This document shows, one piece after another, positions 7,352 to 56,328 of a DNA stretch of 64,000 nucleotides (its first letter is position 1; each line of letters starts with the position of its first letter). The notes under the pieces were generated by a model. The model made no database searches. It was not told where the DNA came from and worked only from the letters and a program-made list of their open reading frames with translations. The position numbers were made by a program, and so were the translations under genes. This stretch comes from Ptychodera flava (lineage: Eukaryota), in the NCBI RefSeq assembly GCF_041260155.1, contig NC_091939.1:23835744-23899743 (forward strand), given 5' to 3'.

Positions 7352-10229
7352 CTACAAAAACAGAAGACAGGGAATCTTACATATATCATGGTACAAGTTG
7401 TGCAATGACCTCTTTTGAATACCCTCTACTTGAAGACACTCTTGAGACACTTGATGAAGATGGAAGAGTTAAGTGATATAATTGACTGTCAGGCTTAATT
7501 GCTGTCACGCTCATTTGGACTGTTACATGTACTGCCATTATTGACACTAAAAGAAATGCACTTTGACTTATGCTTGTCTATTCAGTTCACAATAAATGAC
7601 ACCAATCAACAAGACTACCATATGGTCCTTATCTCTTTTCCTTTCAGGACCTGCTGTTCACAAGAGACTAGAGTACAATGTCTTGGAAACTCAACAGGAA
7701 ACAGTCGTCGGAACTGCGCCTGTGCGAGTTTCTTGTTTAACAAACAATGTATATCGTGCATGATACTAGATGCACCTCATCATCATAGCTGCAACATTTA
7801 AATTACACGATGTAGATTATGACAGACATGTTTTAACTTTCATCAATCACCATCGTACCTTGGATACAGTGTTTACATCGGGTGTATGGGTCCCATACGA
7901 CCTTTAAGCACAGTTCCGACAACTGTATCCCTTTAAAGTATGCACCTTGAAAGTGTAAGACTTAGACTTACACCAAAGCTTTCCTCTATAAAGCTGTCAA
8001 CCGTTCTCTTACCAATTCAAAAATAACAAGTCACTGACAATGACATAGTCCCCACTTGTAATTGGGAATCTGTCAGTAGAAGTAACTAAATTGAAGTTGA
8101 TACAATGCGCATGAAAAAGAGAAATGAGGGTACCTGTCTCTGACTGACGGCCAGATTGGATTGGATTGTAAACAAGTAGACATTAGTATAAATGGCATAG
8201 GGTTATGTCCTTTGACCAAGTTAAACAGAAATAGGTTTGTCATGTTCTGGCTCTTGAAATGTCAAAATTCAACTAATCACCAAAAAAGTGGTCCACGCAT
8301 GTCTGTGTAATGGCTCTTGACATAAAAAATCAGAAGGTCAAATGTGAACCAAAAATGCTCAAGTGTTCATGACAGAAGAGGCTTACAATAATTAGTCATT
8401 GATACTGCTAAATGTCTTTCTTGATTGTTAAATCTTTGTATGATAAACATCTGCAGGAAGTTTCATCAGATTTATTAGTGCAGTCATTCAGGATATAGAT
8501 CTTTAATTACGAACATTCTTTTCCCGCTTAGAGGCCAAACTTTACTTCAGAAACAATGGGGTTGGTCCATACCATGATCACGTGGTGAAAATGTAAAGCC
8601 AATCTTGGTTGCCACCCTATTACAAAAGGTCATTAAGGTAGTGACTCAGTTTGGTTGACACATATTTTCAATCAAAAGTTTCACATAGAAAACAGGGTCT
8701 CACACCCAACATGTGGTACATTTTCTAATAGGTCTATATTTGAAAAGGTAAAAATTTTGTTTAGTTGTCAAAACATGCATTGGTATGTTTGTTTAAGTCA
8801 AAAACATGTGATTTTGAATTTTTTCACTTAAAAGAGTATAAGTAAGAATTGGCAGCACCCCTAAGTGATCTGTTAACGGCACTAGACAGCTGGATATACA
8901 GGGGGAAAAACCGTGTTTTGGATTTTTGAAATTCGCTTTTGTTTCTGCACAGTGAGCCTTCGAAGTGTGAACTGTCGGATTTTCGCATAAATTATCGGCT
9001 TTTGTTCACGTTTGTCAAGTTATCGTCACTTCAGGGGGTTTATCAAAAATCTAAGACACGGTTTTTCAGGTCTATTCATGAAGTGTTAGCATGCGAAGAA
9101 TCAGGGAAATCCGCCCACGCGTCGCCGACTTACACTCATTTGAAGGTGCGGATACATAGCAAAAATCGGAACTGAGAAAATCGACGATTTGTGTAAACGT
9201 CCCATTTTTCACACAAAATCGCCGAAAAAAGTCGGATTTTTGTGCGTTTCAAAAAAAATTATTCGATCTGGGTCTAGGTTAAATATTGGGCATCAGGTTA
9301 GAGAATTTCTGACAAGTCCTAAACATTAGTTCGCCTAAAAATGATGAAAATTGTGCTTAGAAACGTGAGGCTGGTCAGCGTAAGCGGTGGGTACTATTTA
9401 CACGATAAACACTAGAGAGATAATTCAGGGCATAATCTGTTTGTCAAATACGTATCTAGCTTATAATTATATTAACTGTACACTGTTTGGTAACGGTTAG
9501 AGTCTGGTTACAAGACGAGAAAAGTTTAAAAAAATCATACAGCCGGAATGGTTTACAGGTCTGCGTTCTGCCGACGACGCGCGCTCGCTCTCTCGCTAGC
9601 GCTCGACTTCCGGTCTCACAGCCCGTAATTTATGCACGTACCAAGTGTGAAATGGTTGCCCAGTTCATTTTAGTGCCGATTTTTGTGCCTATAGTACAAG
9701 ACGTCACTTGCTTGCTTGCTTGCTTTCGGAGATGAGACGACCAACTCTCAATGCTCTAAAAAATTCTGTAGTTGAGAAGTTCAAGGAATGCGGGAAAGTC
9801 GCACTTGTTTTTGTGGTTTTCACATGTGATCTGCTGCAATCCTTTTGCTCACCATAAAAAATGACCGGGTTTTCGTGCGCTATTTCGCTTTCCACTGTCT
9901 ATTTTTTACATCCATGCACTGTGACATGTACTATTATGGCCTCGGGTATAGTATGAAGCCAAAATCAACTTCAGTTACACGTAAAAGCGATTCTTCATGA
10001 CTTAAAATAAACGACTGAGGCGATACTCGACAGATTCACTCATTGTAAAATTGAAACGGCGACATATCGCGACACCCAGCGACACTCTCTTGACCACAAA
10101 TAGAAATTGACAGGCAACGATCGTGAAGCGACGTTTCACGTACGTTGCTGTGCTCTAGACCGACATAACAGTGTCGGATTGACAAATTGGACAAACCATG
10201 CTTCCTACATCCATGGACAACTAATCCAA

Positions 10230-12037: not shown

Positions 12038-14626
12038 AAATCAAGAAAAAATAGCTTCAGGTCATAAGGACGTTCACCAAGCCAAAGCTACAGGTCCTTA
12101 CAGAAAACTGCTGGCCATTACTAAATGCAGTTGTTACCAACCTCTATTACTATTAAAGTCAACCCTCTCTCCATCAATACTATGCTTTTGAATGTTGTAT
12201 GGAAATATATATTAAATCCTTTTAAACATACGGCAAAGAGATTGGAACTAATCCTTAATTCTCCATGTCCTTTTATCAATAGAGTCAGCAAGTATTCACT
12301 CCAAAGGAATATCATTTACATAGATTGCAGATAGAGTAGGTGGATGATCATGACTCATCCATCTACATTATCTGCAATCTCAAAAAGATCACAGCCCTCA
12401 TCATCCTCACTAATTGAAGTTTGAAGCACATGATTCATAGTCAGAAACACATCAGGGGTGAGCAAATCATTTTTTGAGTCACTAGCCCCCGGGCTAGTAG
12501 CCAAAACTATTTACTAGCCTAGCCACAGTCTCCACTAGCCTGTCAGTGACTTGTTGAGTTTTTTAAAGTTCATGGTTTCACTGCCTGCTCACAAACTGCA
12601 AAATCACAGTCCCTCTTTGTGTGGTGGAACTGCGGCAAAATGTACGGAAAAAATTGCGGTTGACATGAAGATTTTTTCCTCAATTAACAAAACTTGTGAA
12701 CCCAAAAATATAGCAAGATACCAATCAGTTCTTTTTAGTGTAGAGCATGACCATTCTTTAGAGGGCGATGCTCGCCAGAACGGTGCTCAAGGTCGCTACT
12801 GACCCCTATGACCAATATAAACACTGTATCAAAGCTATGCTGGCGATTGATGAAAGTTAAAATATGTTTGTCTTAGTGTACATGGTAAAATTTAAATGTT
12901 GCAGCTATTTTGACATGATGCATCTATATATAGTGCATGCATTACGTTGTTTGTAAACAAGAAAGTTGCAGATGTGCAGTTCCGATGACCACTTCCCTTT
13001 AAGCATATATGATATGACTGCACTGTGATACTTTTGTGATTCTGTTCAAGGGATTTCCTACTGTACTGTGATACCTTTGTGATTCCCTACCACGTCCATG
13101 TGAATAGCTCGGTAACCTCAATGACCCTATGCATGAGAAGAATTCAGTTCCTTGATACCCATGTAATAATTGCGGAAATGAAAGAAATTACAACAAAACA
13201 CATTAAATAGCATTGCATGCACATGCTTCCAAGTGATGTCGATCGCGATGTCCGATGGTAGTTGACTTTTCGATCCTCAAAGTGTTTTATGAAAAGTATT
13301 GCAAGACTATTTGTTGAAAAGGGGTGAGCGAATATCAGGAAGGTTTACAAATTCATAACGTTTGATAAGATTGCCTTGGCTTATTGATGAAAGAAAGCAA
13401 TAAAGGATAACAAAATAATGTAGGCCAGAAGTTCAAGTGACCGAACTGCAAGCACAGCCAAACTTTTTTGCAGTATTTTTAATCCTCTGTCCCCCTTCCC
13501 TAATAGAAGAGTCCTTTTGATGTCATATTTGGCATGCCAGCCTAGCTGACTCAACTCCGCGACAGATGTTTATTTTTCTGTCTTGACACAAGTGATTTCA
13601 TCTTTCATAGAAAGGTCCAAATGTGTTTTTTATTCAAGAATTTCACCAGTGACTACAAAGAATTTACTACCATATTGTTTTTTATTTTGATCTTTGAAAG
13701 GTCTGTGTTTTTACATCCTACAAAGGCTTTTACTGCATAGTGCATAAAATGGATCCACATCATTTGAATTTTTACATAGACGCTTGACGTTTTAGTGCAT
13801 AACTTTTGTCTCTTTTTTCAAATTAAATTCAAGCTGTAATTTCTCAGAACTGCAGTTTTCTTCATTCAAGTATTGCACACGTTCTTTAAATTTGAACCTG
13901 GTTGAAGAATTGTGTTCACTTTGCCCTTAGGCAATTCGGGTTCTCTATGTCGTTTGATGCCGATTCACTCCGATGCTCTCCTAATTTACGCAAGCCCATC
14001 AGAAAAGTAAACACCAAAAATACACCATTACTTGCCCTGCAGTAAAAACTACTAGTGGATTTGCTCACCCCTGTCAGATTCATAGACATCGTCTGCATTA
14101 GAACCTGTTACAGGTCTTGATGGAGAAATTTTCATCATTTATTCCAAATTCTAGTCAGTCACAAGGACCAACATGTTGCTAATCTTTCGGCCCGACCAGA
14201 AATCTGTTGGTCATTGACCGTCGGACGTACTGACGTTAATTCCGCACACTGTCCCTAAGGCGCATTCTACCCAAGACAAGGACATCAGATTGGAGCGTGT
14301 TAGTACATACATCCATGAACTAAACTTGTTTTTTGATGTGATGCCGTATGGTAGCCTTATCAAATTAAGGGAGGAGAGCTTCTTTATCCTACATGAAGAA
14401 GACCCCAGGTATAGGGCAACCAAAATAGATCCTGTCTCAAATATAGGAATACAAATTTTTAAAAATCTAAATAGGTAAACAAGCTTTGGGGAAAAAGAAT
14501 ACACACCAGACGTTAAGTATGTTAGCCAGTTTCACCCTTTCCCTGGGATTTTTATACTTGGCGTCCTGTCATCAGTGTGTTAGAGTGTCCTCTATGGCAC
14601 AACTTTTGAAAGTGATTTGTACTTAC

Positions 14627-15110: not shown

Positions 15111-15409
15111 TAATTATAAGTAATCTGTGCCTTGAAACAGAGAGTTTTAAACTTTTGCCAAAACTACTATTTTCTTTCATGATTATGAATTGCAATTAGA
15201 GATCAACATGCAACGTTTGGATTAGATAACAATACTAGCAATTCAGCTTGATGGGGAATGATAAAATTTTCAATTTCAGAAAAACAAGGTGGTGATAATG
15301 TCACTCACTCCGCGGGCTTCAAAATGAGCTAACACAAGCGGCAGAGCAGAAAAATACAGCTAAAATTTGAGTGTCGGAAACAAATTGTCTCTGAGATTCA
15401 TTCTACTTT

Positions 15410-15640
15410 AAAGGGGAAGTTCACCAAGGCTGATTTTTACATATGTGCTGGCTTTGGAATCGCTTGTTTCGGAAAAGCCAGTTTTTGCAAAAACAGATAA
15501 AAATAGTGGCGGAAGTTGCAATTTAGGGCCCGGAGTAAACGTGAGTGAGTGGACAAAGGAGAGAAATGGCTTTTCCAGAATAAGTGACCCCAAAGCTAGC
15601 ACATATGTGAAAATTAGCCTTGGTGAACTTCCCGTTTATT
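15410..15640. repeat. Hairpin element of about 230 bp with about 50-bp inverted termini.
   Basis: aaggggaagttcaccaaggctgatttttacatatgtgctggctttgg is the reverse complement of ccaaagctagcacatatgtgaaaattagccttggtgaacttcccg. Listed ORFs 15408(-) and 15445(+) are mirror translations of it. Confidence 0.6.
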
Positions 15641-21826: not shown

Positions 21827-22597
21827 CTGTGGAATAAATTCATAATACACTGTTAACAAGTCACTGTCAATGACACAGTCCCCGCCAAATATAAACTTGT
21901 CAATGTGCAACTGTAAAAGTCTACAAATGTTATTGTAAATGCAGTGTCCAAGTCCAGAAATAGCAAATCTGCAAAAGATTGTTTCCTTTTTCTCTTTGAA
22001 TTAAAGTGATATATCCTGAAAGTACCTTGTCTTGCTTAACACAAATGGAGCAAGTCTAGTCTACTCGCTTTGTGCTCTAAGACACTATTGGGTTTTAGGG
22101 TCACCAGGTCAAACACCAGTGAGGACAAATTACATTTGACATCAACATTTTTTGAGATGGAGAGACGCACACACTCTAAAATAGGCACTACCGGTACATT
22201 GGACTAACTCTTGCATAACGGTGAGTTCCAGCATAGACAGTAGTGACAGTGGTGTCTATGGTTCCAGACCTCGGTACATGTATGGCCCGGGTAGCAGACT
22301 ACATTTAGCTATTTAAGGATGGTTAATTCAAGACTTAAGCATGGTGTTGTGCCCTGGAGCAAGCCAAATTAAGCCTCATTGCTCATATGGCTGGTTAGTT
22401 TGCTGTCTAGGTACTTCAACCTATATACGGGATTCAAAATGGATTAAATTGAACATGGAGTAACTGAAATTTTCTACTGCTTAACACGCTTCCTTGTGGG
22501 TGTAACCCTTCATTGTCATTATAGTTACACAAATACCTTGTCAATATATGTCGAAAATTTGTCTGACAAGTGATTGAGTCAAATGTATATTGCACAA

Positions 22598-24720
22598 TAG
22601 AAATAACGGGCGACGCGCTGACCATTAACGTTTATTTATGGGCAAGGGCGAGAGGAAAGCCAAAAATTAACGGGCGAGGCTTGCCGAGCCCGTTAATTTG
22701 GCTTTCCTTGAGCCCGCGCCCATAAATAAACGTTAATGGTCAGAGCGGAGTCTGTTATTTCCATTATATTATCAACGAACCGAAGAAAACCGTCAAAATT
22801 TGTGAAAATTTCCGGAGTGAACGACAACTGGGCCCCAGAACTGAGCAATATGCAACAAATGTCACGCGCGCTGTAAAAAATTGGCAAATCTCGAGATATT
22901 TTCAGAAAAAAGTATCTCAACTTGGCCCACAAGTGCTCCATTTTATTTGTGGATTGATTATGATTTACGTTTGAGCTGTAAAGTTACGATACTTTGAGTT
23001 GTTAATCTTATTATGCATATTCCACGGCATGTAAACAGACCATTACTGTGTATTTGTGGTCAGTCACCGTGTTTCAGCTCGCCAATCAAAATGCGACAGC
23101 CAGGCATGGTAATATAATGCACATTATATTACCATGCCCTGTCCATCGCGTTTTGATTGGTCGAGCTGAACCATGTGACTGCCCACAAATATACAGTAAT
23201 GGTTTGTTTTTCGTGAATATGAATAACATCGTAAACATAGTAACTTTACAGTTAAAATGAAAATTGTGATTTGTACAAAGATCATAATCAACCACAAAAT
23301 AAAATGGAGCATTTGTGGGCCAAGTTTAGACGCTGTTTTTCAAAAAATACCGCAATTATACGGTGTCGCTCAAATTTGATCAGAATTGGTATATACCAGT
23401 ATGGGTTACCAATGATCAACAATAAATGTTGTTTCTATCTGTTCAGTGGAGGAAAATTCTACGTTGATGTTATGGCATGATTTCTGCACAGTACAACCAG
23501 AAAAACAACAAGAAATATTTAAACCAGAAAACAAGAATGACAAAAGTAACTAGAAAGCATTTGCAAGCAAAAGCGAAGTTCCAGAGACCAGAGCAACGGA
23601 AGAAACAAGAGAATGTGTGACAAAGATAGGTGCAGAATGAAAGAGTGCTTTGGATTTTAATATTCAACTTCAAGCACGTACCTATAGTTAAGGGCTGATA
23701 GCAGTGAACAACCAGAATACAACTAAAAGCAAGGCAGTCCGGGGAATTACAGTACACAGATTACAATGCCTACATGTACAATAAAAACGCAACAGATACA
23801 TACTGGGGCGACAACGCACGGAAATGTATATCAGACGACATTCTCGCGAGCCAGAGCAATAATTTTCGCTCCGCTGACCTACGCAAAAATCAATCGCTTG
23901 ACGGGTAGCGCTGAGTTGTTGCCGTAAAGAGGCGCGTCGTTTACGACGATGATCAGACGAGAGGAAACATCGGACCTAGGCCGTTGAAATTGAAAACCGA
24001 GGCCACATGCATTTTCATTTGATTAAAAGCACAGAATAAAACAATTTTTATTGCTATGTCGCTGTTTTCACAAGATACTGACCGTTTGATCTTGGAAAGT
24101 TGAGTTGCTTTTACGTGCAGCCAACGCATGCTGGTGCGGTGACAGACAGTTGACTATGAATGCCTAGCTCTGCATGGCAGGGCTGTGTTACCGGCGTTAC
24201 TGTAAACGGCCTCGCAGACTGATATAGGAAAAACCGCTGGTGGCTCCTCAGAAATACGGCGGGCAGTTTCTCCGCCAAAACAGCCGATTTTGAATCCAAA
24301 TTTTGCATTGAACTTCGTTTTCGAGCACACCCACCTCGCCTAGGTACACGATGTGCCCAGCCACGCTTGTAAACTTACGGAAAGCCTAATTTTCTCTCTC
24401 TATGCGAGCGAAGCGATCGTACCGCCGCCATTGTTATCTCATTAGCATTCGGGCGAAACAGTATAGCCACGTACGGCGAGTATTTAGAGAAAATCATAAA
24501 GCAACAAAAACAAAGCGTAAGAAAGCTAGAATTATTAATAGCTGAACGCAATATGATAGTTGAGCAATGCAAAATAAAAATAAATAAATAAACACACAAG
24601 AAATGCCCGTAAAACCCGTCCGAGCTGAGCGATGACGTCATAAGCGTGTTGCAATGCATTCTGGGTAATTAAGGTAAAATTTGTGTATAGCATGTTCTAT
24701 GATAGTAATACCGGAAATAG

Positions 24721-24763
<43 letters not shown>

Positions 24764-25578
24764 AGGAAAGTGAGCAAAAACTAACAGTTCCAGAGCTGGT
24801 CTCTGGAACTAATTAAGGTCTGAAACTTTAGGTACTGGAGGTCAACTTTAGCAACATGCATAGCAGAAACAAGCCCCTCTTAGTTTAGTATAAACGGTCT
24901 TCCCCCATCTACTGTCTATGGTTGCAGCTGGTCTGTTAATATGTAACAGTTCATAAACAATGACAGGAAATGAGTCAAGATCAGTGGAGTTTGCCTGTTT
25001 CTCACTGGTATGCCTCCTGCACATTTGCAGACTTTCACTTTTCTTACCTCATTTGCACATTTTTGACACTGATGTGTTCATTTGAACAAATTCACATCTC
25101 AACCCCTGCATCTACACTGTACCTGTACACCAAATACTGAGATGGTAGCTTTGGCGGTATGGGAGCCTTTGTGTGTGACGGACATACATCCGCACATACC
25201 CACAAATATACAGACATACAGACATGCAAATCAGATGCAAATGAACTGATTCAGCTTATACGATAACCTCACATTGGTACACCAAATGTGAGCTAAAAAT
25301 CTCTGGATTTGCAAAATTTTAGCAGCGCGCGCACTACTCACTGACAGGTTCTGGGGCCCCGTTGTCGTTCGCACGGGAAATTTTCGTAAATTTTGACGGT
25401 TTTTCGGGGTTCGTTGATAATGTAATGTAAATAACAGACTCCGCGCTGACCATAAACGTTTATTTATGGGCGCGGGCTCGAGGAAAGCCAAATTAACGGG
25501 CGGGGCTTAATTTTTGGCTTTCCTCTCGCCCTTGCCCATAAATAACGTTAATGGTCAGCACGTCGTCCGTTATTTCTA
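22598..25578. mobile_element. Foldback-like element of about 3 kb with about 275-bp terminal inverted units. Each unit holds a 60-bp-arm hairpin (ccataaataaacgttaatggtcag...). A 166-bp perfect palindrome sits at 23040-23205, with diverged extensions out to about 22900-23340.
   Basis: 22598-22870 is the reverse complement of 25310-25578. The palindrome centre is at about 23123. Listed ORFs 22693..22941(-) and 23271..23480(+) share MEHLWAK..., showing mirror translation of the arms. Confidence 0.6.
24716..24770. repeat. (GAAA)n microsatellite.
   Basis: Read directly. Confidence 0.95.
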
Positions 25579-27018
25579 TAATAAAAAACTTATGTTTGTA
25601 CCTGCTGCATACATGTAGTCACATAATTGTGTTTTTCAAAGTAAAGCTATAAGCAAACTTAGCCAGTTATACAACATCGTCTCCATCAGCAACTGAGATA
25701 GTTAAGATATTATATAATCATTCACTTAATATATTCTTTTGTCATAGCTGTAAAAGAAATTTTTTCTGGAGCAACACTGGCGCAACTAGATTTCTTATTT
25801 TGCTGCAAAATGTTTCAGATGACTTGCTCAGATGTCTGTCTGTCTCTTTCATGGAGAAGCGATCATTTTTGATAAGTCTGATATTCAGAATGAGTGTTGC
25901 ATGAAGGCAAATTTAAATTATATGGCCATGGTGTTCCATTTTTGAAAAGATCTGCAACACTCCAAGCTTTGATATTTGAGTGTATATGTCATTCCGGGAC
26001 ATTTCACTTAATTTGCCTTGAATTTTCAATACAGGGGCTAAATTGTTGTCGTTTCGGCGTGCCCCAATTTTTCTGTTTGCAACAAATTATATTTTACCCA
26101 TAGGCCATGGGTGATTTCTATTCATCATCAGTACGGCAACAAATTTTGACCCTTGCAAAATTGAAGATGGCTTGTTTATTTTTTTTTTGGATAAAAATGT
26201 CAGAGTCCATCTCTTGAAATCAGACGGAAGTCTTTGCTCAAACCAGAGACGAGATGCATGCCATGTCTACAGTATGTTTGCTTTGCTCTTCCTGTGACAT
26301 GGTCAGTTACTGTCACTTGAAAAGCAAGCTATTTTAAGGTGGTCTGATCAAGCAGAGAAGTACAGTCAAACCTGGGTATTGTGGTCACAAAGGGGACCAA
26401 GGAAAAGTGACCGATGTACGGAGATAGCCCTTCTGTAAACGGTGGGTGTGGCATTGCTTTCAGTATAGGTGCTGAATTTCGGGAAAGATAACACTATTAA
26501 CGGCACGCATGGTGAAATTAAATATTGAAAATCTTTGAAAATCATGATAAATGATAATTTCTATTGTAATGCATCTATAAAAATGGTAAAAAAATAGTCA
26601 TTCCTTCATTTCACTGTATGAAATCTTTAACAGACGAGAGTCAGAGTTGCTAACCATTATATGCAGGTTTTTGTACCAAATTGGAGCAACACCATGTGGC
26701 CACTGACCACATAAGAGAGATGGCTGTTTTGTAGAGTGCCTTTAACATGTAAAATGTTACAGGACGTCCACAAGGCGACCACTATAGAGAGGTGACCACT
26801 CTATAAGGATGACCACTAAGACAGGTTTCATGTTGTAGAAAAACATGAAAAGTCATTTTGTAACATTTTACCAAACATCGACTTTTGCAAAGTGAAGCGT
26901 TTCTATCAATGCAGCTGCATGCAAATGGTCACATGGGATTCAATCTTGTGCTCACTCAAGGGAGAGCTGATGACCATACTAAAATTTGCTGACTCCGGTA
27001 GATTTTTTTTCAACTTAC

Positions 27019-28948: not shown

Positions 28949-30429
28949 CTGCGCAGAAGTGAAGAAAAAAATTTGAAGGGATTATGAAGACCTTCATCAT
29001 CAGTGTAATACACAAAATGCCTTCTGGGAAGCATTGCATTTATATTTTATGCCTTTTTAATTTAAGGTACAATGTAACTCATCAACATGGGCTCTAAAAA
29101 TTTTTCTCATACTTTGCTGTTTTGGTGTTGTGTGGATGTACTTTGCAATCTACAGAGTATCAAAATGAAGGTCTTATCAATGTTGTTTATGTGAGAATAA
29201 AAAAATTCTTAATTTTTTCCCCAGAAGTTAACGTTGGGAATGGCAGCCATTTTGAATTTCAAATTTTGGGCAGTTCAGCAAAACAAGGCAATACTGAAGT
29301 CCATTGGGCTTACACCAAACAATTTTATAAATCAACACAGGAAGACTGAAGACTCGTGGACACACCTTTCAAACTAAAACTGATTTTCTTGGGGGGCTCT
29401 AACTAATGAGTGATAGTATGACTGAACTACTTAGGTTACTAACAATTCAAACAAAATTTCTTGTACCCGCTACATGTAATCTTCAGTCTTGCCATCAACA
29501 CAAACCAAGGGGTTTAGGTGTTCTACAAAGCTAGCCTCCTGAGAAACATTTCTTCGTTAAAGAAGAATGGGTCTGGATTCCCTAGGGTGTACCCGAACCA
29601 CAAAGCATGTAAACAGTTTTTCTCAGATATTAATGTTTAGATCCTTGGAGGTGATGTTAGTCCTCCTGCACTCCAAGGCATTCTGATTGCTTCTGATTTG
29701 GGGAGTTTTTGTTTGATGTTCATGAGCTTTATTACAGCCAGAAGCAGCGTGTTCAAGCTATGTGCGGCACACTCCGGCAAACATCCGGATGGTTACAATA
29801 CTTGTTGGGGTTCGTTTTGAAAGCTCATGGAGTTAAGACAGTTTTCAATGGCTTATCTTTTTCAAATCATGAATTTTAATTTTTCCCCATGGAGTTAACA
29901 CAGAGATGGCAGCCATTTTGATTTTCAAGCGTCAGTGAATATCTGGCATTTGTTTCTCTACTAACACATTTTGCACAGTGGCCACTTGTTTAGACTAAAA
30001 GATTAGGTTGTGTGTGCATTCTCTGCCAACTAAAACCCAACTTCAAACAATGACTGAAGGCACAGTGTAGATTACTCGGAGAACTCACAGAAATGAGGTA
30101 TTGCTGAACAGGCTTCTCAAACATGCAAAACGCAGCTTTAACCCTTTCACCGCCATGGTTTGGTCCAAACCCATTGTTATCAATGGTAAGCGTGGACCTG
30201 TTTACAAGGAATTGGGGGTGTACAGGTTAACCTAAATATTAATGAAGCCCAGTTACATGATAACTTGGAGTCCTATCATCCTCTCTTGAAGCCTATATGC
30301 TGTTACATAAACTAAACTGTGAAATGTGATTGGTTCCGACAAGGTTTTATTGGAGAACGGACATTCAACACTGCGCCTTCGGTCATTGTTTAGGTTTGAG
30401 TTGGCAGAGACTCATACACAATTGAATCT

Positions 30430-30540
30430 TTCAGTCTAACCCTTATTTTTAGTCTTGATTTCGAGGCAAATAATTTAAAGTTTCCCCCACAGAAAATTTA
30501 TCAAAAGTTTTTTCTTTCAGTTGCAAGGCACATACTACCT
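30430..30540 (-). mobile_element. MITE family A, 5'-half fragment.
   Basis: It contains cgaggcaaataatttaaagtttccccc and ends gcacatactacc. Confidence 0.4.
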
Positions 30541-30623
30541 TATAATGTCACTGTGAGCAATTTTTGTCGGGGTGGTTCTCTCAGAGATGATTATAATCGA
30601 AGGGCATAACAATTACACCGTAC

Positions 30624-30687
30624 CTTTCTATAATATCAGCTATTGCGCATGCAAAGAGTAACAAGCCTTCTGGGAATTGAAGAGCCA
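30624..30687 (-). CDS. DPH1: DPH1 exon 4, encoding (V)[20 protein letters not shown] plus ag.
   Basis: This matches human [21 protein letters not shown](R). The acceptor is tctcttttgtcttacag|TG and the donor is AAAG|gtacgg. Phases are consistent with exons 3 and 5. Confidence 0.9.
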
Positions 30688-31125
30688 CTGTAAGACAAAA
30701 GAGATAGCATTTGACGTTCTTTCTGTGAGCTCAGCTGTTCATTATATTTGCAGTCCTGCAGAGGTGTCAGTGTTTTACACAGTTCAGAAAACCAGAGGGA
30801 CGACAAATCTACATAACAATATATAATTTGCATATTCTTTTGTGGTGGAATTGTATTTTTTGATACAGAGGGGTGGTCCAACACTCAAAATCCCCTTGTG
30901 ACTCTATAAGCTTGCATGAAAGCCACATGTATGTACCATGTGAGCTTATGTCAGGTAGGCATTTCTTTCGTAGGCTTTTACCATGATATTGAAGTACCGA
31001 TGTCATGAAAGTTCCATTAGCTATAACTTCTGATGCACTTTACAGGATATTTTTGTTCTGCCTGTGATGTGAAGTTAGCTGTTCAAATCCAAATACCCTT
31101 TTGAAATGCCTGATGTTCAAGTAGT

Positions 31126-31905
31126 CAACACTGCCTGCATGTGTGTGTGAGTAACGTCCAATGTGATTGGTGAGCAACACTGCCTGCATGTGTGTGTAAC
31201 ATCCGATGTGATTGGTGAGCAACACTGCCTGCATCTGTGTAATGTCCGATGTGATTGGTGAGCAACACTGCCTGCATGTGTGTAATGTCTGATGTGATTG
31301 GTGAGCAACACTGCCTGCATGTAATGTCCGATATGATTGGTGAGCAACACTGCCTGCATGTGTGTAATGTCCAATGTGATTGGTGAGCAACACTGCCTGC
31401 ATGTGTGGAATGTCTGATGTGATTGGTGAGCAACACTGCCTGCATGTGTGTAATGTCCGATGTAATTGGTGAGCAACACTGCCTGCATGTGTGTAATGTC
31501 TGATATGATTGGTGAGCATCACTGCCTGCATCTGTGTAATGTCCGATGTGATTGGTGAGCAACACTGCCTGCATGTGTGTAATGTCCGATGTGATTGGTG
31601 AGCAACACTGCCTGCATGTGTGTAATGTCTGATATGATTGGTGAGCATCACTGCCTGCATCTGTGTAATGTCCGATGTGATTGGTGAGCAACACTGCCTG
31701 CATGTGTGTAATGTCCGATGTAATCGGTGAGCAACACTGCCTGCATGTGTGTAATGTCTGATATGATTGGTGAGCAACACTGCCTGCATGTGTGTAATGT
31801 CCAATGTGATTGGTGAGCAACACTGCCTGCATGTGTGTAATGTCCGATGTAATCGGTGAGCAACACTGCCTGCATGTGTGTAATGTCTGATGTTATTGGT
31901 TACAA
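31126..31905. repeat. Minisatellite with an about 45-bp unit (TTGGTGAGCAACACTGCCTGCATGTGTGTAATGTCCGATGTGA) in about 17 copies.
   Basis: The periodicity is visible directly in the sequence. It produces several overlapping fake ORFs of 120-250 aa on the minus strand. Confidence 0.9.
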
Positions 31906-32029
31906 CTGAATTTCAGTCGAGACTAGAATTTATTTATCAACAATAATAATATTGCACATTGTACAAATGCTGCATCATGTTGTTAAGGCTTATATTTTGT
32001 TTGGGGACAAGGATAAGAAAGTGCATATG

Positions 32030-32300
32030 TTTAACTCTTTGGGTGCCAAGTCAATTTTTGTTGCATTTTACTCAGTGTAAATATAACACAGATAAGTTTT
32101 TTTTAGTTCAAGACAATTTCTTTTACCTTTTTTTCCCAAAAATTTGATCGAAAAATGTTGCCAACAAAAAGTTATGTCCATGTGATCCAAAATCATCAAA
32201 ATAATTGCAGGAAAGTTCATAAAAATTCGTAAACTGATACACCAAAATTTTGGCGGGAAAAATTACAGGACTCAAAGGTTTATACATCAGAAATGATGAA
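32030..32300 (+). repeat. Dispersed repeat family C, copy 2.
   Basis: See 18990-19260. Confidence 0.55.
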
Positions 32301-32783
32301 AAATCCAGTAACAATCAGAGTTTTGATAAAACTGAGTACATGTGCATGATGGCATTTGTTCAGTGAACATTACAGAAAAAATCTGGCACCATCATGAAAC
32401 AACATGAAACTTTGTGAAACAGCTGACATACATCCTACTAGTGTATTCTGAAATGACCTATAGTTATGATCAACTTTAAGGCTTTAAATTAACTGGTGAA
32501 AAAACTTTGCAACGAGTAACCTGTTGCACAGCCCCTAAAAGTGACCATGCAAATTGGCCAACCCCTGTCACCTTATTGAAATGACGAACAGAAACTGTCA
32601 TGAAATGTCATGAAATTACCAGTTTTTAACAATTCAATGAACCAACTTTTCATGTTGAAATGACAAATGGTTTACTTGCATATCGGTATGTAACTGGGGG
32701 AATTTTATGTAACTTAACATGTACATTGTCATGCACACCATTGACTGACTCTCAGCAGTCTGTTTGGAAATGTTTCACCTTAC

Positions 32784-32853
32784 CTCGTTTTGCACCAGTC
32801 ACTTGTATCCTCCAAATTGTCTTTGGTATTTCAAAATTGTAGTTTGATGGCAG
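32784..32853 (-). CDS. DPH1: DPH1 exon 3, encoding LPSNYNFEIPKTIWRIQVTGAKR plus 1 nt.
   Basis: LPSNYNFEIPKTIWRIQ is identical to human DPH1. The acceptor is tttacag|CTG and the donor is cgag|gtaagg. It starts in phase 0 and ends with 1 nt. Confidence 0.9.
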
Positions 32854-32989
32854 CTGTAAATCACAGACAGACTTAAGTGAACACAGCATGCCAAATGGAA
32901 TGCATTAGAAGCATGGTCTAGAAGCGAATACACACTGGTTAAACTTCCACCAAATCTGAAGTATTACCAATGTACTGGTACTGAGTACA

Positions 32990-35341
32990 TACCAAACCAA
33001 GTGGGTGAAAATACATATGGTTTTGGCCCAATACCGCTTTTCAATGACTTGGCAGATGGGGAAGCGACATGTCTGGCAGGTAAAGCGTTAAATGAGCAAA
33101 TAATTAACGATGAGCATATTATACTAGCCAAACTTTCACCGTAATTAACCCTTTTCCTACCAGACAGTAATAACTGTATCACTTCCCTATCAGCCAAGTC
33201 AGTAAAAATAGCGCCAATGGCACTTGATCACAACTGGCACATTGTGAAACTACTCTATCTCTGGGTACACCTGTACATGAAATACTGAATGGGTAGGTGC
33301 TGCGGTTTGGAGTTTGTCAGTAAATGCACACAAAAACAAAGTCCCGAAGTAGCGAATTCCAGCCATTTTCAAACCACACTGTTTGTCAGTGGGGTAAGCA
33401 ATATTCACAAAAATCACATTTCCAGGCTAATAGACTATGTTTTACGAAATCACACGTCCTTATCACAAAATAAAACAATCTTTGTCTTTAAATCAATGCG
33501 CCAGTAAACAGGTCCAGCAGCTAGTTATGTCATCAAGTCTGTAATGTTAAGGTACTAACAAATGTGAGAAATCTAAAACATTAAATATGTTGATTTTTAT
33601 CAATTTTATTACCAAAAGCGCATGAAATCTCTGATACTTTGAATCAGCCATCCTGCATATTTCTAACATTCATCAAAACTCATTTCTGTTCCACAACTCA
33701 TTAATAGTCCACAATGCAGGATTGGTGTACATTCCAAAACTACATATATGAAAGACCCCTAAAATCAATTAGTTAAAGGGGGGTTAGAAATTTCCCAAAA
33801 CTATATAACCGCTGCTCCGTTTGGCTCCATTTTCGGAATCGGAACCTTGGAACCAGTCTGAATATCTGTACCAAATATCAATGCAGTCTGTTCAGCGGTT
33901 TTTTGACTTTTTGTCGTTTACGGAAAATGGACACTGTCCAAACACCGGTTGAAGCTAACCCTATATCACAACTTCCAGATGTGATAATGACCTATGGTCA
34001 TTATGTTAAAAATATACCGCCAATGGCGCATGGACATAATGACCGCCTAGTATTATTGGCATTTATCAACAACCACACTCACTGTGAATTAGACAGACCA
34101 CGAAGTCAATGAGCAACATATAGCTGAAAGACTATTTTTCACATTGCGATGTTAAGCTCATTTTTATGAGAAAAGAGACATGTATATGTATATGGAGAAA
34201 AAGCAGAAGACATATTTGTAAATTGTTTGTTAAGTGACAATCATATATGCATCTCTTGAAATTTTGTGGTTATAAGGTATAACACTAGTGTAAGAATAAT
34301 GAGGTTAGAATAAGTTAGTAAAGCTAAGTTGACAGTAATTAAGATTACAAATTATACACTAAGCTGGGTAAATCTGAATGAAATAAATGTTGAAAAGTAG
34401 CAAAGTCATGGTCATCTTTTGTCTAATACCTTGTGTAAGTTCATGAACTTTACATAAATCTTGCTGTAGATTTGTTGCTAATGGGCAATAACTGTGTTTC
34501 AGATCATTTGAGAGCAATCCATCCATGACAGCTTTAAATTGTTATGTACTTCTATTTAAAGGACAGAAACTTCTCAAATAATTTTTTTCCCTGTAATTTG
34601 CTGTGAGAACACATGGACAGATGCTCAGGACTCTATGCTGGTGCTACCTGATAACTAACCTACAACTTGTAACGTCATTGTCTAACCTGTTCACCCCCAA
34701 TTTCCTGTAGACAGGTCCACACTCTCCATTGATAACAATGGGTTTGGCCATACCATTGTAGTGAAAGACTGTAACATGTGAGGTTGTGGATACTTAATCT
34801 CTGGAATGTCAAAGTCTGTATATTGACTCAAGGATGTTTACTTAACAAATGCCTAGGGTCATCTCAAAAGTGAGAATCTAAACTATGAAATATGTTTTTT
34901 TTAATGCTTTTGATGCCCAAAAGAGCATAGAAATCTCTTATACTTCGAATCAGCCATCCTGCATATTTCTAACATTCATCAAAACCTCATTTCTGTTCCA
35001 CAACTCATAAAACAGTCCACAATGCAGGATTGGTGTACATTCCAAAACTACATATATGAAAGACCCCTAAAATCAATTAGTTAAAAAGGGGGGTTAGAAA
35101 TTTCCCAAAACTATATAACCGCTGCTCCGTTTGGCTCCATTTTTCCGAATTGGAACCTTGGAACCAGTCTACGTATCAGCATCAAATATCAACGCAGTCT
35201 GTTCAGCAGTTTTTGACTTTTTGTCGTTTACGGAAATGGACGACATCAAACACCGGTTGAAACCGTCTCTATATCACAACTTCCAGTTGTGATAAAAAGC
35301 GGTATTGAGCCAAAACATGACGTACCCACTTGGCTTGGTAT
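32990..35341. mobile_element. Element of about 2.35 kb with about 45-bp TIRs (cataccaaaccaagtgggt... / ...acccacttggcttggtatg). It contains a 430-bp internal direct duplication (33560-34000 and 34860-35300).
   Basis: 32990-33040 is the reverse complement of 35298-35341. The duplicated blocks are over 90% identical by eye. Confidence 0.45.
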
Positions 35342-36114
35342 GTTATATCATCTTTTGTCCAAAAAAAATCAACTTTACAGTATTGTTTTCAACAGCCTTC
35401 AAATGTACAGTATTATGTTAAAATACATCATATGGAATACGTTGTCTTTCATTAATTTTAACCATCTTGACCTGGTGGTGAAATATGGACTTGGCAGGAA
35501 AAGGGTTAAAACTTAGCATGATCAATGTACCCAAGAAGTTAGGCTGATCAATTTTGTTGCGTTTAGTTTTGATACATGGCTCAGTTCAGAAATTTTTAAA
35601 TATGCAAATACGCTAATCCTGATATGTCACAACAAAAAAACTGTAAATATAATTAAAATGTTCTCCCAAGAACAATTAAGCATAGTGGCCATTGCTCTTC
35701 AATTTTTTTATGAAACAATGGAAGCTCATTGATACAACAATTATTTATGCAAATTTGTCACTCAGAAATTCTTGGGGAGACACTGCTGAATCTAAATGTA
35801 AGAAGTCCGTAAATTCAGCATAATCAGTTTTGCAGGCCAAAAGAGATTTTATGATGAATGGGTTGTGCACCAGCCTAAATCAATCACATTGTACACATGA
35901 GAAATAAGTACACATTTAGATACATGTACCAGTATTCACAAGAGAGAGTACTCAACGCTATTGCATGAAAAATAGTCGCTGAACAACCTGAACATCCTTG
36001 CAGGCCAAATCACGGACAGCCACGTTCACTGAAGCAAAATCTTGAGATGATACTAGCAAGGAAAGTCGTAGCAAGTGGCTGAAAAGTTGATCTTGTAACA
36101 AGGGTAGATATCCT

Positions 36115-36235
36115 TTGTGCTTTAACCTGTTCACCCAATTCCCTGTAAACAGGTCCACACTCACCATCGATAACAATGGGTTTGGGTCAAACCATTGTGG
36201 GGAAAGGGTTAAAGGTGCGATACACATTTGATTGG
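36115..36235. repeat. Short dispersed repeat family B (aaccctttcaccaccatggt...cccattgttatcgatggtgagtgtggacctgtttacagggaattgggtgaacaggtt). Other copies are at about 30140-30235, 34675-34760 and 8522-8600, with a fragment at 36595-36640.
   Basis: Blocks of 80-100 bp recur in both orientations. Confidence 0.5.
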
Positions 36236-36843
36236 ATTTATAGAAAGCAAACCACAGCACTAATTCCTTTGGGGACAAATTAATCATGGAATGAAAATTT
36301 ACAAATCTTTTTATTAAAAAAGGTGGGAGGCAGTTGAAGTATTAGAGCTTTTGCAGTATTGGAACATTGATGTGATGTGGTGGATGGGGCAGTAAAAGAG
36401 ATTTTATGATGAATGGGTTGTGCACCAGCCTAAATCAATCACATTGTACACATGAGAAATAAGTACACATTTAGATACATGTACCAGTATTCACAAGAGA
36501 GAGTACTCAACGCTATTGCATGAAAAATAGTCGCTGAACAACCTGAACATCCTTAATCGTTTCAAACCCCCCACCCCCCCTCCCCCCTCCCTAGAAAATA
36601 TTGGAATTGGTTCGGTACCATGGTGGTGAAAGGGTTAAAGGTATACAGTCACCTGTAATCTAAATATGCCCATATATGGTCAAAGGGACATTAATTGGTA
36701 TTCAAAATGCCCATGTGAGGGCGCTGTTTTTAAAAAGAGGCCACCGGCTTAAAATCTATGATTGGTTAGAGTTTATCTTTCCATGGCAACTGTGGCAAAA
36801 TTGGAACAGGTGACAGTATACCTTTAAAGCATTGGGTATTTAC

Positions 36844-36923
36844 CTGCTTGATTGCATTTTGAAGTTCTGTATTCTCCAGTATATCATTTGGTACTTGACT
36901 GGCAACCCTGAGATTTCTTCTCT
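36844..36923 (-). CDS. DPH1: DPH1 exon 2, encoding (E)RRNLRVASQVPNDILENTELQNAIKQ.
   Basis: The minus-strand translation matches human DPH1 [22 protein letters not shown]. The acceptor is ctttgtcaaacag| and the donor is cag|gtaaat, ending in phase 0. Confidence 0.8.
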
Positions 36924-41084: not shown

Positions 41085-42140
41085 CATATAATCTTATGGA
41101 AATCTGGTCACGACATGCGACATGCGACCTGCGACTTCAAAACTGCGACCTGCATCCTGCGAGTTTGAAACATGCGACCTGCTACTTCGGCATTTAGACC
41201 TAGGTGTAACCTGCGACTTCACAACAGCGACCTGCGTCCTGCGTGTTTGTCAAACTGTGACCTGCGACTTCACAACTGGTACATGCGACCTGCGTGTTTG
41301 TCAATGTAAAGGAAAAGTTCAGATAATCGATTGAAATGCCTTAAACAAACTAATCGTTGTCAGATTAGTACAACATTTACTGTTAACATAACGAGCACTA
41401 GCAACGCTCAAAATATGCCCTAAAACAAAAATCCTTATAAGCGTCCAGAAACACCGGATCGCTCACTATAGAGTCAGTCAATAGTGGCCAACTCTCTCAA
41501 TAATGAATCTGGCTTCTCCTCCTCAAGGACGAAGATGACTTCATCACACAACCAAGCAGAGGGGATACAAAACAAGAAAGCGACTGATGAAGGAACCCCA
41601 TTTTTTGTTCCGAAACACCGTTAAGACGAATCACTCAATCAACAAACCGGTTTACCAGGGACCCAGATATGACTAGGGTCAAAGCACTATCGATTCACCG
41701 GTGTCTCGCCATGTATTCCACACAAAATAAATGCAATGATCCTTTTATTCACCATATCGTAATATTAAACAATCTTGGTAGAGCCAATGTGTGGAGTTGC
41801 CCTCAATTTCCTTTATATTAAACCGGACTTTGAAAGCAACCGAACAACACGTAAGCCAACACAGCTGTGTTATCGAAGCTCATCTCTTTCCTAAATGACA
41901 CCACCTATCACTGATATTACTTAACTTGTGACTGCTTTTCATACTCTCAATAAACACCAAATACCTAAAGGCTAAAATCATGGATCAGGTCGTGATCTCG
42001 CAGGTCGCAATTTCAAACTCGCAGGTGGCAGCTAGGCCAGAGCACCCGGAAGTCGCAGGTTGCAGTTTGACAAACACGCAGGCCGCAGGTCGCAGTTTTG
42101 AAGTCGCAGGTCGCATGTCGTGACCGGATTTCCATATAAT
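41085..42140. mobile_element. Non-autonomous DNA transposon or MITE of about 1.05 kb with 150-230-bp TIRs built from CTGCGACYTGCGA subrepeats. It has a candidate 8-bp target-site duplication TATAATCT.
   Basis: 41100-41320 is the reverse complement of 41985-42135. The flanks are ccaTATAATCT|tatggaaatc on the left and gatttcca|TATAATCTcc on the right. It lies in DPH1 intron 1. Confidence 0.6.
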
Positions 42141-42844: not shown

Positions 42845-43100
42845 TGTGTTCTATTCCGGTCTGTATCTATCCCGGGGTGTCTATGCAGGTCACAGTCACC
42901 TGTGGTCGGTCTATTCCGCTCGGCGGCCTCTATGACCCCATAGACGTGTGTACACACGTCTATAGGCATAGACGCCCAGCGAAATAGAACGACCACAGGT
43001 GACTGTGATGCAGTCTATGCCCCCTGTAGACGTGTGTACATACACAGTCACCTGTGGTCTATTCCACTCTGTGTCTATGCGCCCCATACGTGTGTGGGGC
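42845..43100. repeat. Two adjacent or nested copies of a roughly 135-bp perfect-hairpin repeat with termini CACAGTCACCTGTGG...CCACAGGTGACTGTG.
   Basis: The hairpin is self-complementary around tgtgtacaCAcgtcta. Related palindromes occur at 44340-44450 and 44740-44960. Confidence 0.55.
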
Positions 43101-43384
43101 TACTAATAATAATTTATAATAATAATAATAATTTTATTGAGCTCTACGACCCCTTTCGAGGTATGAGAGTACATTTACATCAAAATCTCTGAACAGGAGA
43201 TAAATAAATCGAAAAAAAATTCTGAAAAAAGACTTTTAAATGTATTAAAAAATAGCACTAGAAGTAGAACAATTACATGCACATACGGAAAAATACATAA
43301 AGCAGAAAAAAACTACTTAAACTTGTTCATAATGAGGTTGGCGAATTTCGCTAATTTTGAGAGCTCATGCATGCTGGTTCTTCT

Positions 43385-44445
43385 CTGGCATATGTACACA
43401 CGTCTAGGGGGCGCATAGACGCAGAGCGCAATAGATCACCAGTCCGGGTCAGCTCCAAAATTGGAGACTCATTATGATAATGTATTCCGGCATTCAGCCA
43501 ATCATCGACCAGATTACATCATTAATACAGTACAGGTCACGCTGGGTCACAAATTACCCACCAAGTGTGATCGGCAGTTTTGGGCCGCTTATTAAGCCCC
43601 TGTCTTGTGAATTTCGACGAATTTCGACAATCAACATAATCCACGTGTTCTGCAGAAGGTATGTCCAACAAGGAGTCCGATTAGTGAACAAATATTCGAA
43701 ATATTGACAATTCATTTCTACCCCAGTTTATCGATTTCGCTCAAGTACCGAGAATCATTTTGTGGATATTCGTCATCTCTATTAGAAATACTGTTATAAA
43801 GGTTATTTGTGTAGGTACGCGTATAACATTTTGCAAGGAAGAAGAGCAATGTCAGAGCTTTAAAACGATACCTGTTTTGTAGTTGTCAAACGCAGACTAA
43901 AAATGGTACGCGTTTTTGAAAATGTGTTGACAGAGTGGCCACACAACTGTTCCCCATACGGTGAATTTGTATCGCTGCCATCACCGATACAAATGGGGTA
44001 TTCTGAACGATCTGTGTAGGTACACGATTTATATTTCGCAGGACTTCAAGCCAGAGTCTAGGAATCACAGCGATATATGGGTTTGGTTGTCTTAGCCAGA
44101 ATAAAACTGGTACGCGCTTTTGAAATTGTGTTTTGACAGAGTGGCCACACAACTGTACGACATTATGACAGAATACGGCGCGGGAGTTCGACACAGTATG
44201 GCGTACGTAACGAAGGACGCATGTGGAGGTTGCCAGGAAATACAATTTTTACTGATGGCGCGCTGGCCGTTGATTGGCTAATGGGAGTGGGGAAATATTA
44301 TGGTATAGCGCTCCAATTTTGGAGCTGACCCGGATTGATCACAGGTGACTGTGGTACATATGCCTGAGAAGGTTCTTCTCAGGCATATGTACACAAGTCT
44401 ACCATAGACGCAGAGCGGAATAGAACACAGGTGACTGTGCTTACA
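43385..44445. mobile_element. Element with about 80-bp inverted termini (gtcagctccaaaattggagac... / ...gtctccaattttggagctgac) and an internal 120-bp direct repeat.
   Basis: 43400-43470 is the reverse complement of 44290-44340. The direct repeats are at 43880-43990 and 44090-44160 (tggtacgcg.ttttgaaa.tgtgtt..gacagagtggccacacaactgt). Confidence 0.4.
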
Positions 44446-44739
44446 CCACCAACCTTTGATGCCTTAACTTGGTCTCATCATGGAGGTAGTAGGCCTACAT
44501 GGTCTCATCATGGAGCACAGTGACAAAACATTGAGTCGGTATAGACTATAAGACTGTCAAAGGACAAATACACGAAACAATGGAGGAGGCAAAGAAATTT
44601 TTACAAAACCAGTCTCCTCCATAGCACTGGTTTTTTAAAGATTTCTTTGTCTCCTCCACTGTTTCGTGTATTTGTCCTTTGATAGTCTTACGCGAAGTTT
44701 TGTCACTGTGTTGGCCGGGTCTATTATCTAACGCGTTTC

Positions 44740-44960
44740 ATTGCCCGATGCACAGTCACTCGTGAGCTATTCAGCTCTGGGACTATTCGCCCCATAGACG
44801 AGTGTACATAAGCGAGAAAAAAACCAGCTCTGGGACTATTCGCCAGATAGACGTGTGTACATAAGCGCTTATGTACACTCGTCTATGGGGCGAATAGTCC
44901 CAGAGCTGGGTTTTTTTCTCGCTTATGTACACTCGTCTATGGGAGGAATAGTCCCAGAGC
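44740..44960. repeat. 220-bp near-perfect palindrome (cacagtcactcgtgagc...gctcacgagtgactgtg), the same CACAGTCAC-ended family.
   Basis: The reverse-complement symmetry is centred at about 44868. Confidence 0.55.
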
Positions 44961-45870
44961 TGAATAGCTCACGAGTGACTGTGCCTGATGCGCCAAAGCA
45001 AGCAAGGGTAAGTTACTAATCCGTGGACTCTGCTGTCACCAGATTATCACCGGATTAACTTTGACACAGTCAACAACGAACGCAACAGCATGGTATCCAC
45101 AGCATGTACAGGAACTCTGACTGAATAATAGTAAACAAGTAAATAAAAAATAGAAAAATAAAAATAAAATAGAAAACAAGGTCAAAAAAGAAAAAAAGCA
45201 TCAAAAACAAACAAGTAAACAAAACAAACAAGTAAACAAGTAAAGAAACAATAGACTGACAGATCAATCGTGAGATTTCCATGAAACAGACTAGATTCAT
45301 CTTGCTATGGTCCTAGCAATGTGAATCTAGTTTGTTCAAGGTCTAGACGCAACGACCGATCATCCTGCGAGTAATGTGCCCAATCAGCTTGAAGATGTCT
45401 TGCCGATAACAGGATATTACATTCTAAATTAAATTATTTACTAATATTAAAAAGGCCTCGTTGACCGGCAAATTTTAAGGTCATAGAAATAAGCGGTTCA
45501 GCCGTCATTCACTGTGTCGTGGTCTCAGCTACCGGCCGAACACACGCATGCAAATTACGTTGTTCACATAGAAACCGCATGCAGCATAGCCAAAAGCAAG
45601 AAAAAAAATTGAAATTTTAGCATCTGGTCCTCGCTTTCCTAAATATATGAACCAATCTATACAAAGTGTATTGATGAGCGATGTGTGAGTACACAGATAA
45701 ACAGGTAATGAGTCATTATTCAGCTCAGTCCGATTCGAAAAGGTATGGATAGTACAACTCGTTGAGCCGATATATCGGTCGTATTGGTAGTTTGTGCATG
45801 CTGCTGGCTTTGATTAGGCAATCTGGTAAACTGTTCTACAGGCTGACCAACCCCGGTGTTATACATATAA

Positions 45871-48518: not shown

Positions 48519-48785
48519 GTAAGATGAACTTTGAATTCTTGGCGAATAATGTACCGAAACATGAAGTATTACATCATGATTTTTGCCTTTTTGTACGTGT
48601 TTTACGTTTTCCCGAATATTTTCTGACTTTGGGGGTTCTGGGTAGATGTTTTCATGAGCAGTTCGGGTTTTTTGATGACTTCGTTCGGACCCCGTGTGCC
48701 ATGGAAGATTAATGTCTTATTGGAAAAAAGATGTAGAAACATGGGTTATTTATGTTTCAATTTAAATGATATGAACGAATAAATT

Positions 48786-56216: not shown

Positions 56217-56328
56217 ATAGTGTACTCCTGCTTGATCTATCAAAGGCATTTGATCTTATAGATCATGAAATTTTGCTTGCTAAACTACATGTTTATGGGC
56301 TATCTGATGGAGTGATTAACTGGTTTAG

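Follow-up and report, generated by a model that had tools for sequence, protein, structure and literature searches.

A hairpin-ended inverted-repeat structure in DPH1 intron 6 of the acorn worm Ptychodera flava: possible remnant of a non-autonomous DNA transposon

An intron of the DPH1 gene of Ptychodera flava contains a stretch of DNA whose two ends are inverted copies of each other and whose parts can fold into long hairpins. The question raised by this locus is whether the stretch is, or once was, a single mobile element, and if so, to which of the known classes it is closest. The first-pass annotation of the window (the whole 64,000-nt stretch of genomic DNA analysed here) had described it as a Foldback-type transposon or a long inverted-repeat hotspot without coding capacity, carrying a perfect palindrome whose presumed instability was taken as a sign of recent formation.

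The host gene was identified from its exons. Pfam placed Diphthamide_syn exons on the minus strand of the window, and a protein search with a DPH1 query matched DPH1-like proteins of P. flava. (The query included two short joiner stretches; the exon mapping is independent of both.) Mapping of DPH1 isoform X1 (XP_070572751.1) located 12 coding exons in the window with identity at or near 100%. The structure is flanked by coding exon 6 (27177 to ~27015) and coding exon 7 (21829-21707), which confirms the earlier placement in intron 6 of DPH1. Its coordinates run along the strand opposite to the coding strand of the gene. At least eight further hairpin or inverted-repeat structures are present in the same window, and objects of such kind are common in the P. 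flava genome. Inverted repeat copies located near one another were also seen in other families (7690-7904 versus 12789-13003, and three copies in 30131-36219). The LINE reverse transcriptase of the window, used as a query, detected no P. flava loci (best match 61% identity, 1-kb contigs).

Comparison of the two ends of the structure showed that the inverted terminal units are real, but longer than the 275 bp originally assigned to them (Table 1). BLASTN (word size 9) aligned 22598-22901 with the inverted 25295-25578 at 81.9% identity over 304 columns (E 6e-83), and the complementarity reaches one base beyond on each side, to 22597 and 25579. In a global alignment of the two units 255 of the 308 columns were identical (83%) and 26 were gap columns. 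The units are separated by 27 substitutions (11 transitions and 16 transversions), corresponding to a K2P distance of ~0.10. Identity between the left and the right unit is 88% in the hairpin part, and 77% in the extension of ~136 nt. Homology between the ends past 22901 and 25295, into or after the inner palindrome, was insignificant when compared with shuffled sequences (z 1.2-2.0); a continuation of the alignment including a 15-mer exact match, plausible by eye, was dropped because of these values.

Table 1. Positions of the structure in DPH1 intron 6 and of its parts, in window coordinates
Feature	Position	Strand	Length	Remarks
Whole element	22597-25579		2,983 bp	
Left terminal unit	22597-22901	+	305 nt	Terminal hairpin, then 136-nt non-palindromic extension
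Right terminal unit	25295-25579	-	285 nt	Inverted copy of left unit
Left terminal hairpin	22597-22765		169 nt	Arms ~69-84 nt, very small loop at ~22679-22682
Right terminal hairpin	25425-25579		155 nt	12-nt deletion at hairpin centre relative to left unit
Inner imperfect palindrome	22897-23349		453 nt	Adjoins inner edge of left terminal unit
Non-coding middle region	23350-25294			Compositional mosaic
(GAAA)n / (AGAA)n microsatellite	24721-24770	+		12.5 units, period 4, 95% matches, score 93 (Tandem Repeats Finder)
13-nt motif AAWTAACGGGCGA	22601-22613	+	13 nt	One of five copies in terminal units
13-nt motif, other copies	22665-22677 (+), 22686-22698 (-), 25491-25503 (+), 25563-25575 (-)		13 nt	
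25-nt core motif GACCATTAnnGTnTATTTrTGGGCA	22620-22644	+	25 nt	One of six copies
25-nt core motif, other copies	22717-22741 (-), 23038-23062 (+), 23180-23204 (-), 25448-25472 (+), 25533-25556 (-)		25 nt	Copy at 25533-25556 with 1-nt deletion

As had been proposed, each terminal unit contains a hairpin of its own. The arms of the left hairpin (22596-22664 and 22697-22765, 69 nt) are 84% complementary, and the DNA fold of this hairpin has a free energy of -68.5 kcal/mol (z -16.2), a value equalled by none of 200 shuffled sequences. The right hairpin folds with -49.5 kcal/mol (z -11). Both terminal hairpins face outward. The outer hairpin arms read GGGCAAGGGCGAGAGG and the inner arms GGGCGCGGGCTCRAGG, identically at both ends of the element. 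This matching asymmetry of the arms indicates that the ends are copies of one already-imperfect unit and not fresh foldbacks.

The hairpins also contain recurring short motifs. A 24-mer pointed out in the first-pass annotation occurs three times with at most one mismatch (0.00 expected by chance), and a fourth copy carries a 1-nt deletion. Each terminal hairpin has the 13-nt motif at its outer tip and again close to its centre, and the 25-nt core motif lies between these two sites; when two mismatches were allowed, the 13-nt motif had eight matches in the window against 1.68 expected, five of them inside the terminal units. The 25-nt core motif is common to all four arms of the terminal hairpins and, unexpectedly, to the two arms of the inner palindrome as well. 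When the core motif was aligned locally between terminal hairpins and palindrome, 20 of 25 positions were identical (z 5.3-5.7; at most one of 1000 shuffled sequences scored as well). No copy of this motif was detected outside the element by pattern scanning.

The inner palindrome begins exactly at the end of the homology between the ends. Folding (-139 kcal/mol, z -22) left no doubt about its existence; its alleged perfection is another matter. The arms are identical in 181 of 250 aligned columns (72.4%), with 47 gap columns. The segment 23040-23205, described as a perfect 166-bp palindrome, had mismatches at 128 of its 166 positions when it was compared without gaps with its own reverse complement. 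Aligned with gaps, its two 83-nt halves were identical in 70 of 88 columns (8 mismatches, 10 gap columns), and the longest perfect palindrome measures 36 nt (23103-23138; two 17-bp arms around a 2-nt spacer). Instability and recent formation had both been argued from the perfection of the palindrome, and since there is no perfect palindrome, these arguments fall: the arms at this locus are 72-84% identical and differ by many indels. The useful outcome of this part of the analysis is therefore negative, because the special-looking feature, a perfect 166-bp and thus recent or unstable palindrome, is absent from the sequence. The homology between the ends does not significantly resume beyond the inner palindrome, thus its nesting is at most putative. 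Most simply, the palindrome is a related hairpin module, which belongs to the element or is nested within it.

Palindrome fragility needs near-identical arms and a short spacer. The inverted repeats described here resemble those of fragile sites in being hundreds of bases long, but differ from them in that their arms are 72-84% identical, or 82% identical with a 2.4-kb spacer. For this reason the structure is unlikely to act as a long inverted-repeat hotspot, as had been proposed. The same arm identities and the 36-nt length of the longest perfect palindrome show that it is no unstable perfect palindrome, and speak strongly against an assembly foldback artefact.

No coding capacity had been noticed in the structure, and this held. 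An open reading frame scan found none over 97 codons in the element, a six-frame Pfam search of the whole element gave no match at E<=1 and no transposase remnant, and a protein-style search with the 96-codon open reading frame spanning the left unit yielded no candidate. Scanning for a tRNA or SINE origin detected no tRNA. Compared with the rest of the window, the middle region had no significant similarity except for microsatellite-like stretches; the (GAAA)n tract reported in it was found again, with slightly corrected limits (Table 1).

At the symmetric boundaries of the element the only perfect direct repeat is 2 bp long, TA or AT. TA occupies 22598-22599 and 25577-25578; being self-complementary and part of the inverted repeat, it is inseparable from the tip of the repeat. 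AT is equally possible as a duplication and is likewise inseparable from the palindromic tip. The outer flanks read ..CACA/ATAG and CTAT/AATA (the slash marks the boundary). A target duplication of 8-10 bp was not found at symmetric boundaries, the best flanks matching at 4-6 positions only, and a 7- or 8-bp direct repeat was absent from them as well (2-5 of 7 and 1-4 of 8 positions matching). When longer duplications (3-11 bp) were sought at all boundary offsets, solely A-rich near-matches were obtained, and the boundaries that these require are asymmetric and in conflict with the inverted repeat.

Within the 64-kb window no second copy of any module was detected, either by BLASTN (word size 9) or with nhmmer profiles, which were built for each of the four hairpin arms, for both terminal units and for both arms of the palindrome. 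Two metagenome pattern scans returned no match in one case and a single match in the other; this match had only 26 nt in common with the pattern and was rejected as a chance match.

The best local evidence for an inserted origin of the terminal units is the CpG boundary. The observed/expected CpG ratio rises from 0.39 in the 2 kb of intron next to the left unit to 1.52 within this unit, and from 0.53 in the 2 kb next to the right unit to 1.60 within the latter. The step coincides exactly with the outer limits of the inverted repeat, indicating that the units differ in history from the intron, i.e. that they are inserted DNA. Inside the element the ratio is 0.84 in the palindrome, and two CpG-poor stretches, 23350-23790 (0.59) and 24701-25294 (0.25), lie on either side of a CpG-rich block (23791-24700, 1.35). 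In the aligned terminal units 17 of 28 CpG positions are shared, so that CpG decay since the divergence of the two ends has been modest. Because of this, the age of the insertion is unreadable from the 10% divergence of the ends alone, and nothing supports a 'recent' insertion.

Taking these results together, we give about even chances to the interpretation that a non-autonomous cut-and-paste (TIR-class) DNA transposon was once inserted in DPH1 intron 6 and has left 22597-25579 as its decayed remnant. This interpretation is suggested by the inverted ends (E 6e-83) and the three hairpins (z -11 to -22), which are far beyond chance, and by the outward orientation of the two terminal hairpins, which fits a single element. 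It is also consistent with the CpG step at the outer edges, the recurring 13-nt and 25-nt motifs, the lack of coding capacity, the TA or AT at both outer junctions and the richness of the window in hairpin and inverted-repeat elements. The repeated motifs would then be putative binding sites of a transposase that an autonomous relative at another genomic site may have provided in trans. Such an enzyme would have brought both ends together and cut the element out, and would then have inserted it again, probably at a TA dinucleotide. The present copy is presumably inert intronic DNA, whose only likely activity would be the formation of double-stranded stems in the DPH1 pre-mRNA. Against this interpretation stands that no second copy was seen in the 64-kb window, multi-copy status being the hallmark of a transposon.

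The two CpG-poor internal stretches, which look like ordinary intron, speak against a single element, and two separate insertions fit them equally. It is possible, if less probable than the single transposon, that one element of ~290-305 bp was inserted twice, independently, 2.4 kb apart and in opposite orientation, and that the stretch between the copies is ordinary intron. The palindrome, and the CpG-rich block in the centre, would in this case have been inserted separately as well, and the whole would never have moved as a unit. The CpG ratios of 23350-23790 and 24701-25294 are indeed like those of the flanking intron (0.39-0.53), and the terminal units, the palindrome and the central block are CpG-rich by contrast. 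Other repeat families of the window also occur as nearby inverted copies, and a TA dinucleotide (25293-25294) adjoins the right unit on its inner side. On the other hand, a hairpin followed by a 136-nt tail, with no inverted repeat between its own ends, is not a self-sufficient TIR element, and both hairpins would come to lie outermost in only one of the four possible orientations. Moreover, there is no third copy in the remaining 61 kb, thus the arrival of two copies within 3 kb is unlikely by chance.

A local inverted duplication of a ~300-bp segment, produced within the intron by replication template switching or hairpin-primed repair, would account for a pair that has never transposed. Just two copies were seen in the 64-kb window, both at this locus, and there is no clear target-site duplication. 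We regard this origin as unlikely: the units are CpG-rich in a CpG-poor intron, which means that the founder copy, at least, did not come from the intron itself, the copies contain organised repeated motifs, and their symmetric outward-facing layout is exactly that of transposon ends.

That the hairpins are functional RNA elements, i.e. stems of the DPH1 pre-mRNA which are edited or give rise to small RNAs (miRNA-like or endo-siRNA), appears very unlikely. The stems are very stable (z -11 to -22), and the centre of the palindrome has weak, miRNA-hairpin-like Rfam matches to long-hairpin miRNA families (E 9e-4). These matches are sub-threshold, reaching one third of the gathering thresholds (33 bits versus a gathering score of 100), and a similar likeness to those models is to be expected of any long hairpin.

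Palindromes are known as a source of failure in long-read libraries. The published chromosome-level assembly of P. flava is PacBio-based and Pilon-polished (PMC11175523), but an origin of the inverted structures from chimeric long reads or assembly mis-joining is extremely improbable, as artefactual foldbacks would have near-identical arms of local unique sequence, whereas the arms found here differ by 16-28% with many indels and the terminal units are unlike their flanks in composition.

If the structure is a single transposon, its closest relatives can be sought among the elements with inverted ends. Foldback elements (Drosophila FB, Tetris, nematode Tm1, sea urchin TU) have ends composed of tandem subrepeats and are flanked by 8-10-bp target duplications, typically of 9 bp (PMC4079207, PMC3169594); nested insertions are common in them (PMC3169594). 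Foldback families are also dispersed and multi-copy, and some of their copies encode a MULE-type transposase. Like these elements, the structure in DPH1 has long inverted ends that enclose a variable non-coding middle domain, and it can fold back on itself. It differs from them in that Tandem Repeats Finder detected no array of tandem subrepeats in 22597-22901 or 25295-25579, the repeated motifs being few and mostly in inverted orientation, in the absence of an 8-10-bp duplication, and in terminal units that make up only about 20% of the element length. Thus, of the transposon-derived, foldback-like architecture proposed earlier, the long inverted ends, the hairpin modules, the non-coding middle and the intronic location stand; membership of the Foldback family has to be given up, the ends having no tandem subrepeats and the element no 7-10-bp target-site duplication.

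Galileo, a foldback-like member of the P superfamily (PMC3573991, PMC3688188), has long ends with several copies of a putative transposase-binding motif, and is similar to our structure in this respect. The ends of Galileo measure 0.6-1.2 kb, and its full copies encode a THAP transposase; neither feature was seen here. Galileo target duplications are 7 bp long, and the 7-8-bp duplication of Galileo/P elements is absent from the present structure too. An octamer (GAAATAAC) of the tip in common with the end of the Drosophila P element is not extended by the right end, and is probably a coincidence.

The inverted ends, the lack of coding capacity, the intronic location and the hairpin modules of 155-453 nt are reminiscent of TIR elements and MITEs. 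Tc1/mariner-derived, TA-flanked elements have two binding sites per inverted repeat (IR/DR layout). The likeness to TIR elements or MITEs with a TA target extends to the short motif that recurs at the tip and in the inner part of the arms and to the possible TA duplication. The terminal bases (TA/GAAATAACGG) are presumably unlike the usual Tc1/mariner or Stowaway termini, and the whole structure, at 2,983 bp, exceeds the size of MITEs (< about 800 bp), in contrast to its hairpin modules. Another mark of MITEs is a high copy number; the 64-kb window contains no other copy of the present structure. Helitrons and Helentrons have asymmetric ends, a hairpin near the 3' end only, insertion between A-T or T-T and no inverted termini of hundreds of bases; they are excluded by the 300-bp inverted-repeat ends and by the flanking sequences given above.

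The 25-nt core shared by the three modules and the 13-nt tip motif of the two terminal ones suggest a further idea, which we consider a long shot: the three hairpin modules could define an undescribed family of hemichordate mobile elements, whose ends are recognised as folded single-strand hairpins. The recogniser could be an HUH-type or other hairpin-handling enzyme, instead of one recognising duplex inverted repeats. If true, this would account for the lack of a visible target duplication above 2 bp.

If the interpretation as a decayed TIR-class remnant is correct, the structure in DPH1 would be one more copy of a non-autonomous DNA transposon in a repeat-rich invertebrate genome, residing harmlessly in an intron of a housekeeping gene. 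Its 13-nt and 25-nt motifs, together with the sharp CpG boundary, are possible handles for defining the family in the curation of P. flava repeats.

The middle region of the transposon-like element in DPH1 intron 6 contains a perfect 15-nt inverted repeat (positions 23577-23591 and 24796-24810, AGTTCCAGAGACCAG / CTGGTCTCTGGAACT), with the CpG-rich block of the middle region and also the (GAAA)n tract between its arms. By chance, 2 kb should contain about 0.002 perfect inverted pairs of this length. The right arm is included in a local hairpin (24788-24810), and no target duplication was seen at the repeat. The two arms may represent the ends of a nested element of 1.23 kb.

Within the CpG-rich block, the minus strand of the region 24400-24645 looks, by its sequence, like a promoter followed by a first exon, which may have been captured or may be in situ. 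The protein-family search gave no match. A CRE-like TGACGTCA site is located at approximately 24634-24641, and a Kozak-like ATG (AACAATGGCGGCGGTACGATCG) lies downstream of this site when the minus strand is read.

A metagenome pattern scan matched a 2.1-kb, eukaryote-looking contig (Ga0049107_10095766). The similarity to the hairpin arm was limited to 26 nt (AGGAAAGCCAAATGTTAACGGGCGAG, contig positions 1851-1876), and the match is treated as due to chance. Several other hairpins or short-spacer inverted repeats were detected in the window (see the table), with arms of 43-145 nt and complementarity of 75-100%. These are presumably MITE-like elements, and the tip and core motifs of the element studied were found in none of them.

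Repeats and neighbouring genes in the window (window positions)
Feature	Position	Strand	Location or domain
Hairpin or short-spacer inverted repeat	2397-2756
Hairpin or short-spacer inverted repeat	15409-15638
Hairpin or short-spacer inverted repeat	41095-42136
Hairpin or short-spacer inverted repeat	43054-43439
Hairpin or short-spacer inverted repeat	44549-44690
Hairpin or short-spacer inverted repeat	44750-44984
Interspersed repeat, inverted copies	7690-7904 vs 12789-13003		DPH1 introns
Interspersed repeat copies, inverted orientation	30131-30229, 34683-34747, 36134-36219		DPH1 introns
Rhodopsin-family GPCR gene, two exons	48185-48709 and 52753-53526	+	7tm_1
LINE-type reverse-transcriptase remnant	55446-57345	+	RVT_1

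The GPCR gene and the LINE remnant both lie downstream of the 5' end of DPH1; the nearest reverse transcriptases in the database are only 61% identical to the remnant. In the annotated DPH1-like isoform X2 (XP_070572752.1) the exon 36843-36923 is read in a frame different from that of isoform X1, and two exons, one at 32.8 kb and one at 30.6 kb, are skipped. As these changes leave X2 without the conserved N-terminal portion of Diphthamide_syn, the isoform is, judged from its sequence, probably non-functional or mis-modelled.

One DPH1 intron also carries a long tandem repeat (31043-31912), in which several minus-strand frames are open and read as the repeated peptide HTCRQCCSPITSDITHMQAVLLTNHI.... 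The inverted copies of interspersed repeats in DPH1 introns are spaced a few kb apart and show that one family can have close inverted copies here that do not constitute a single element.
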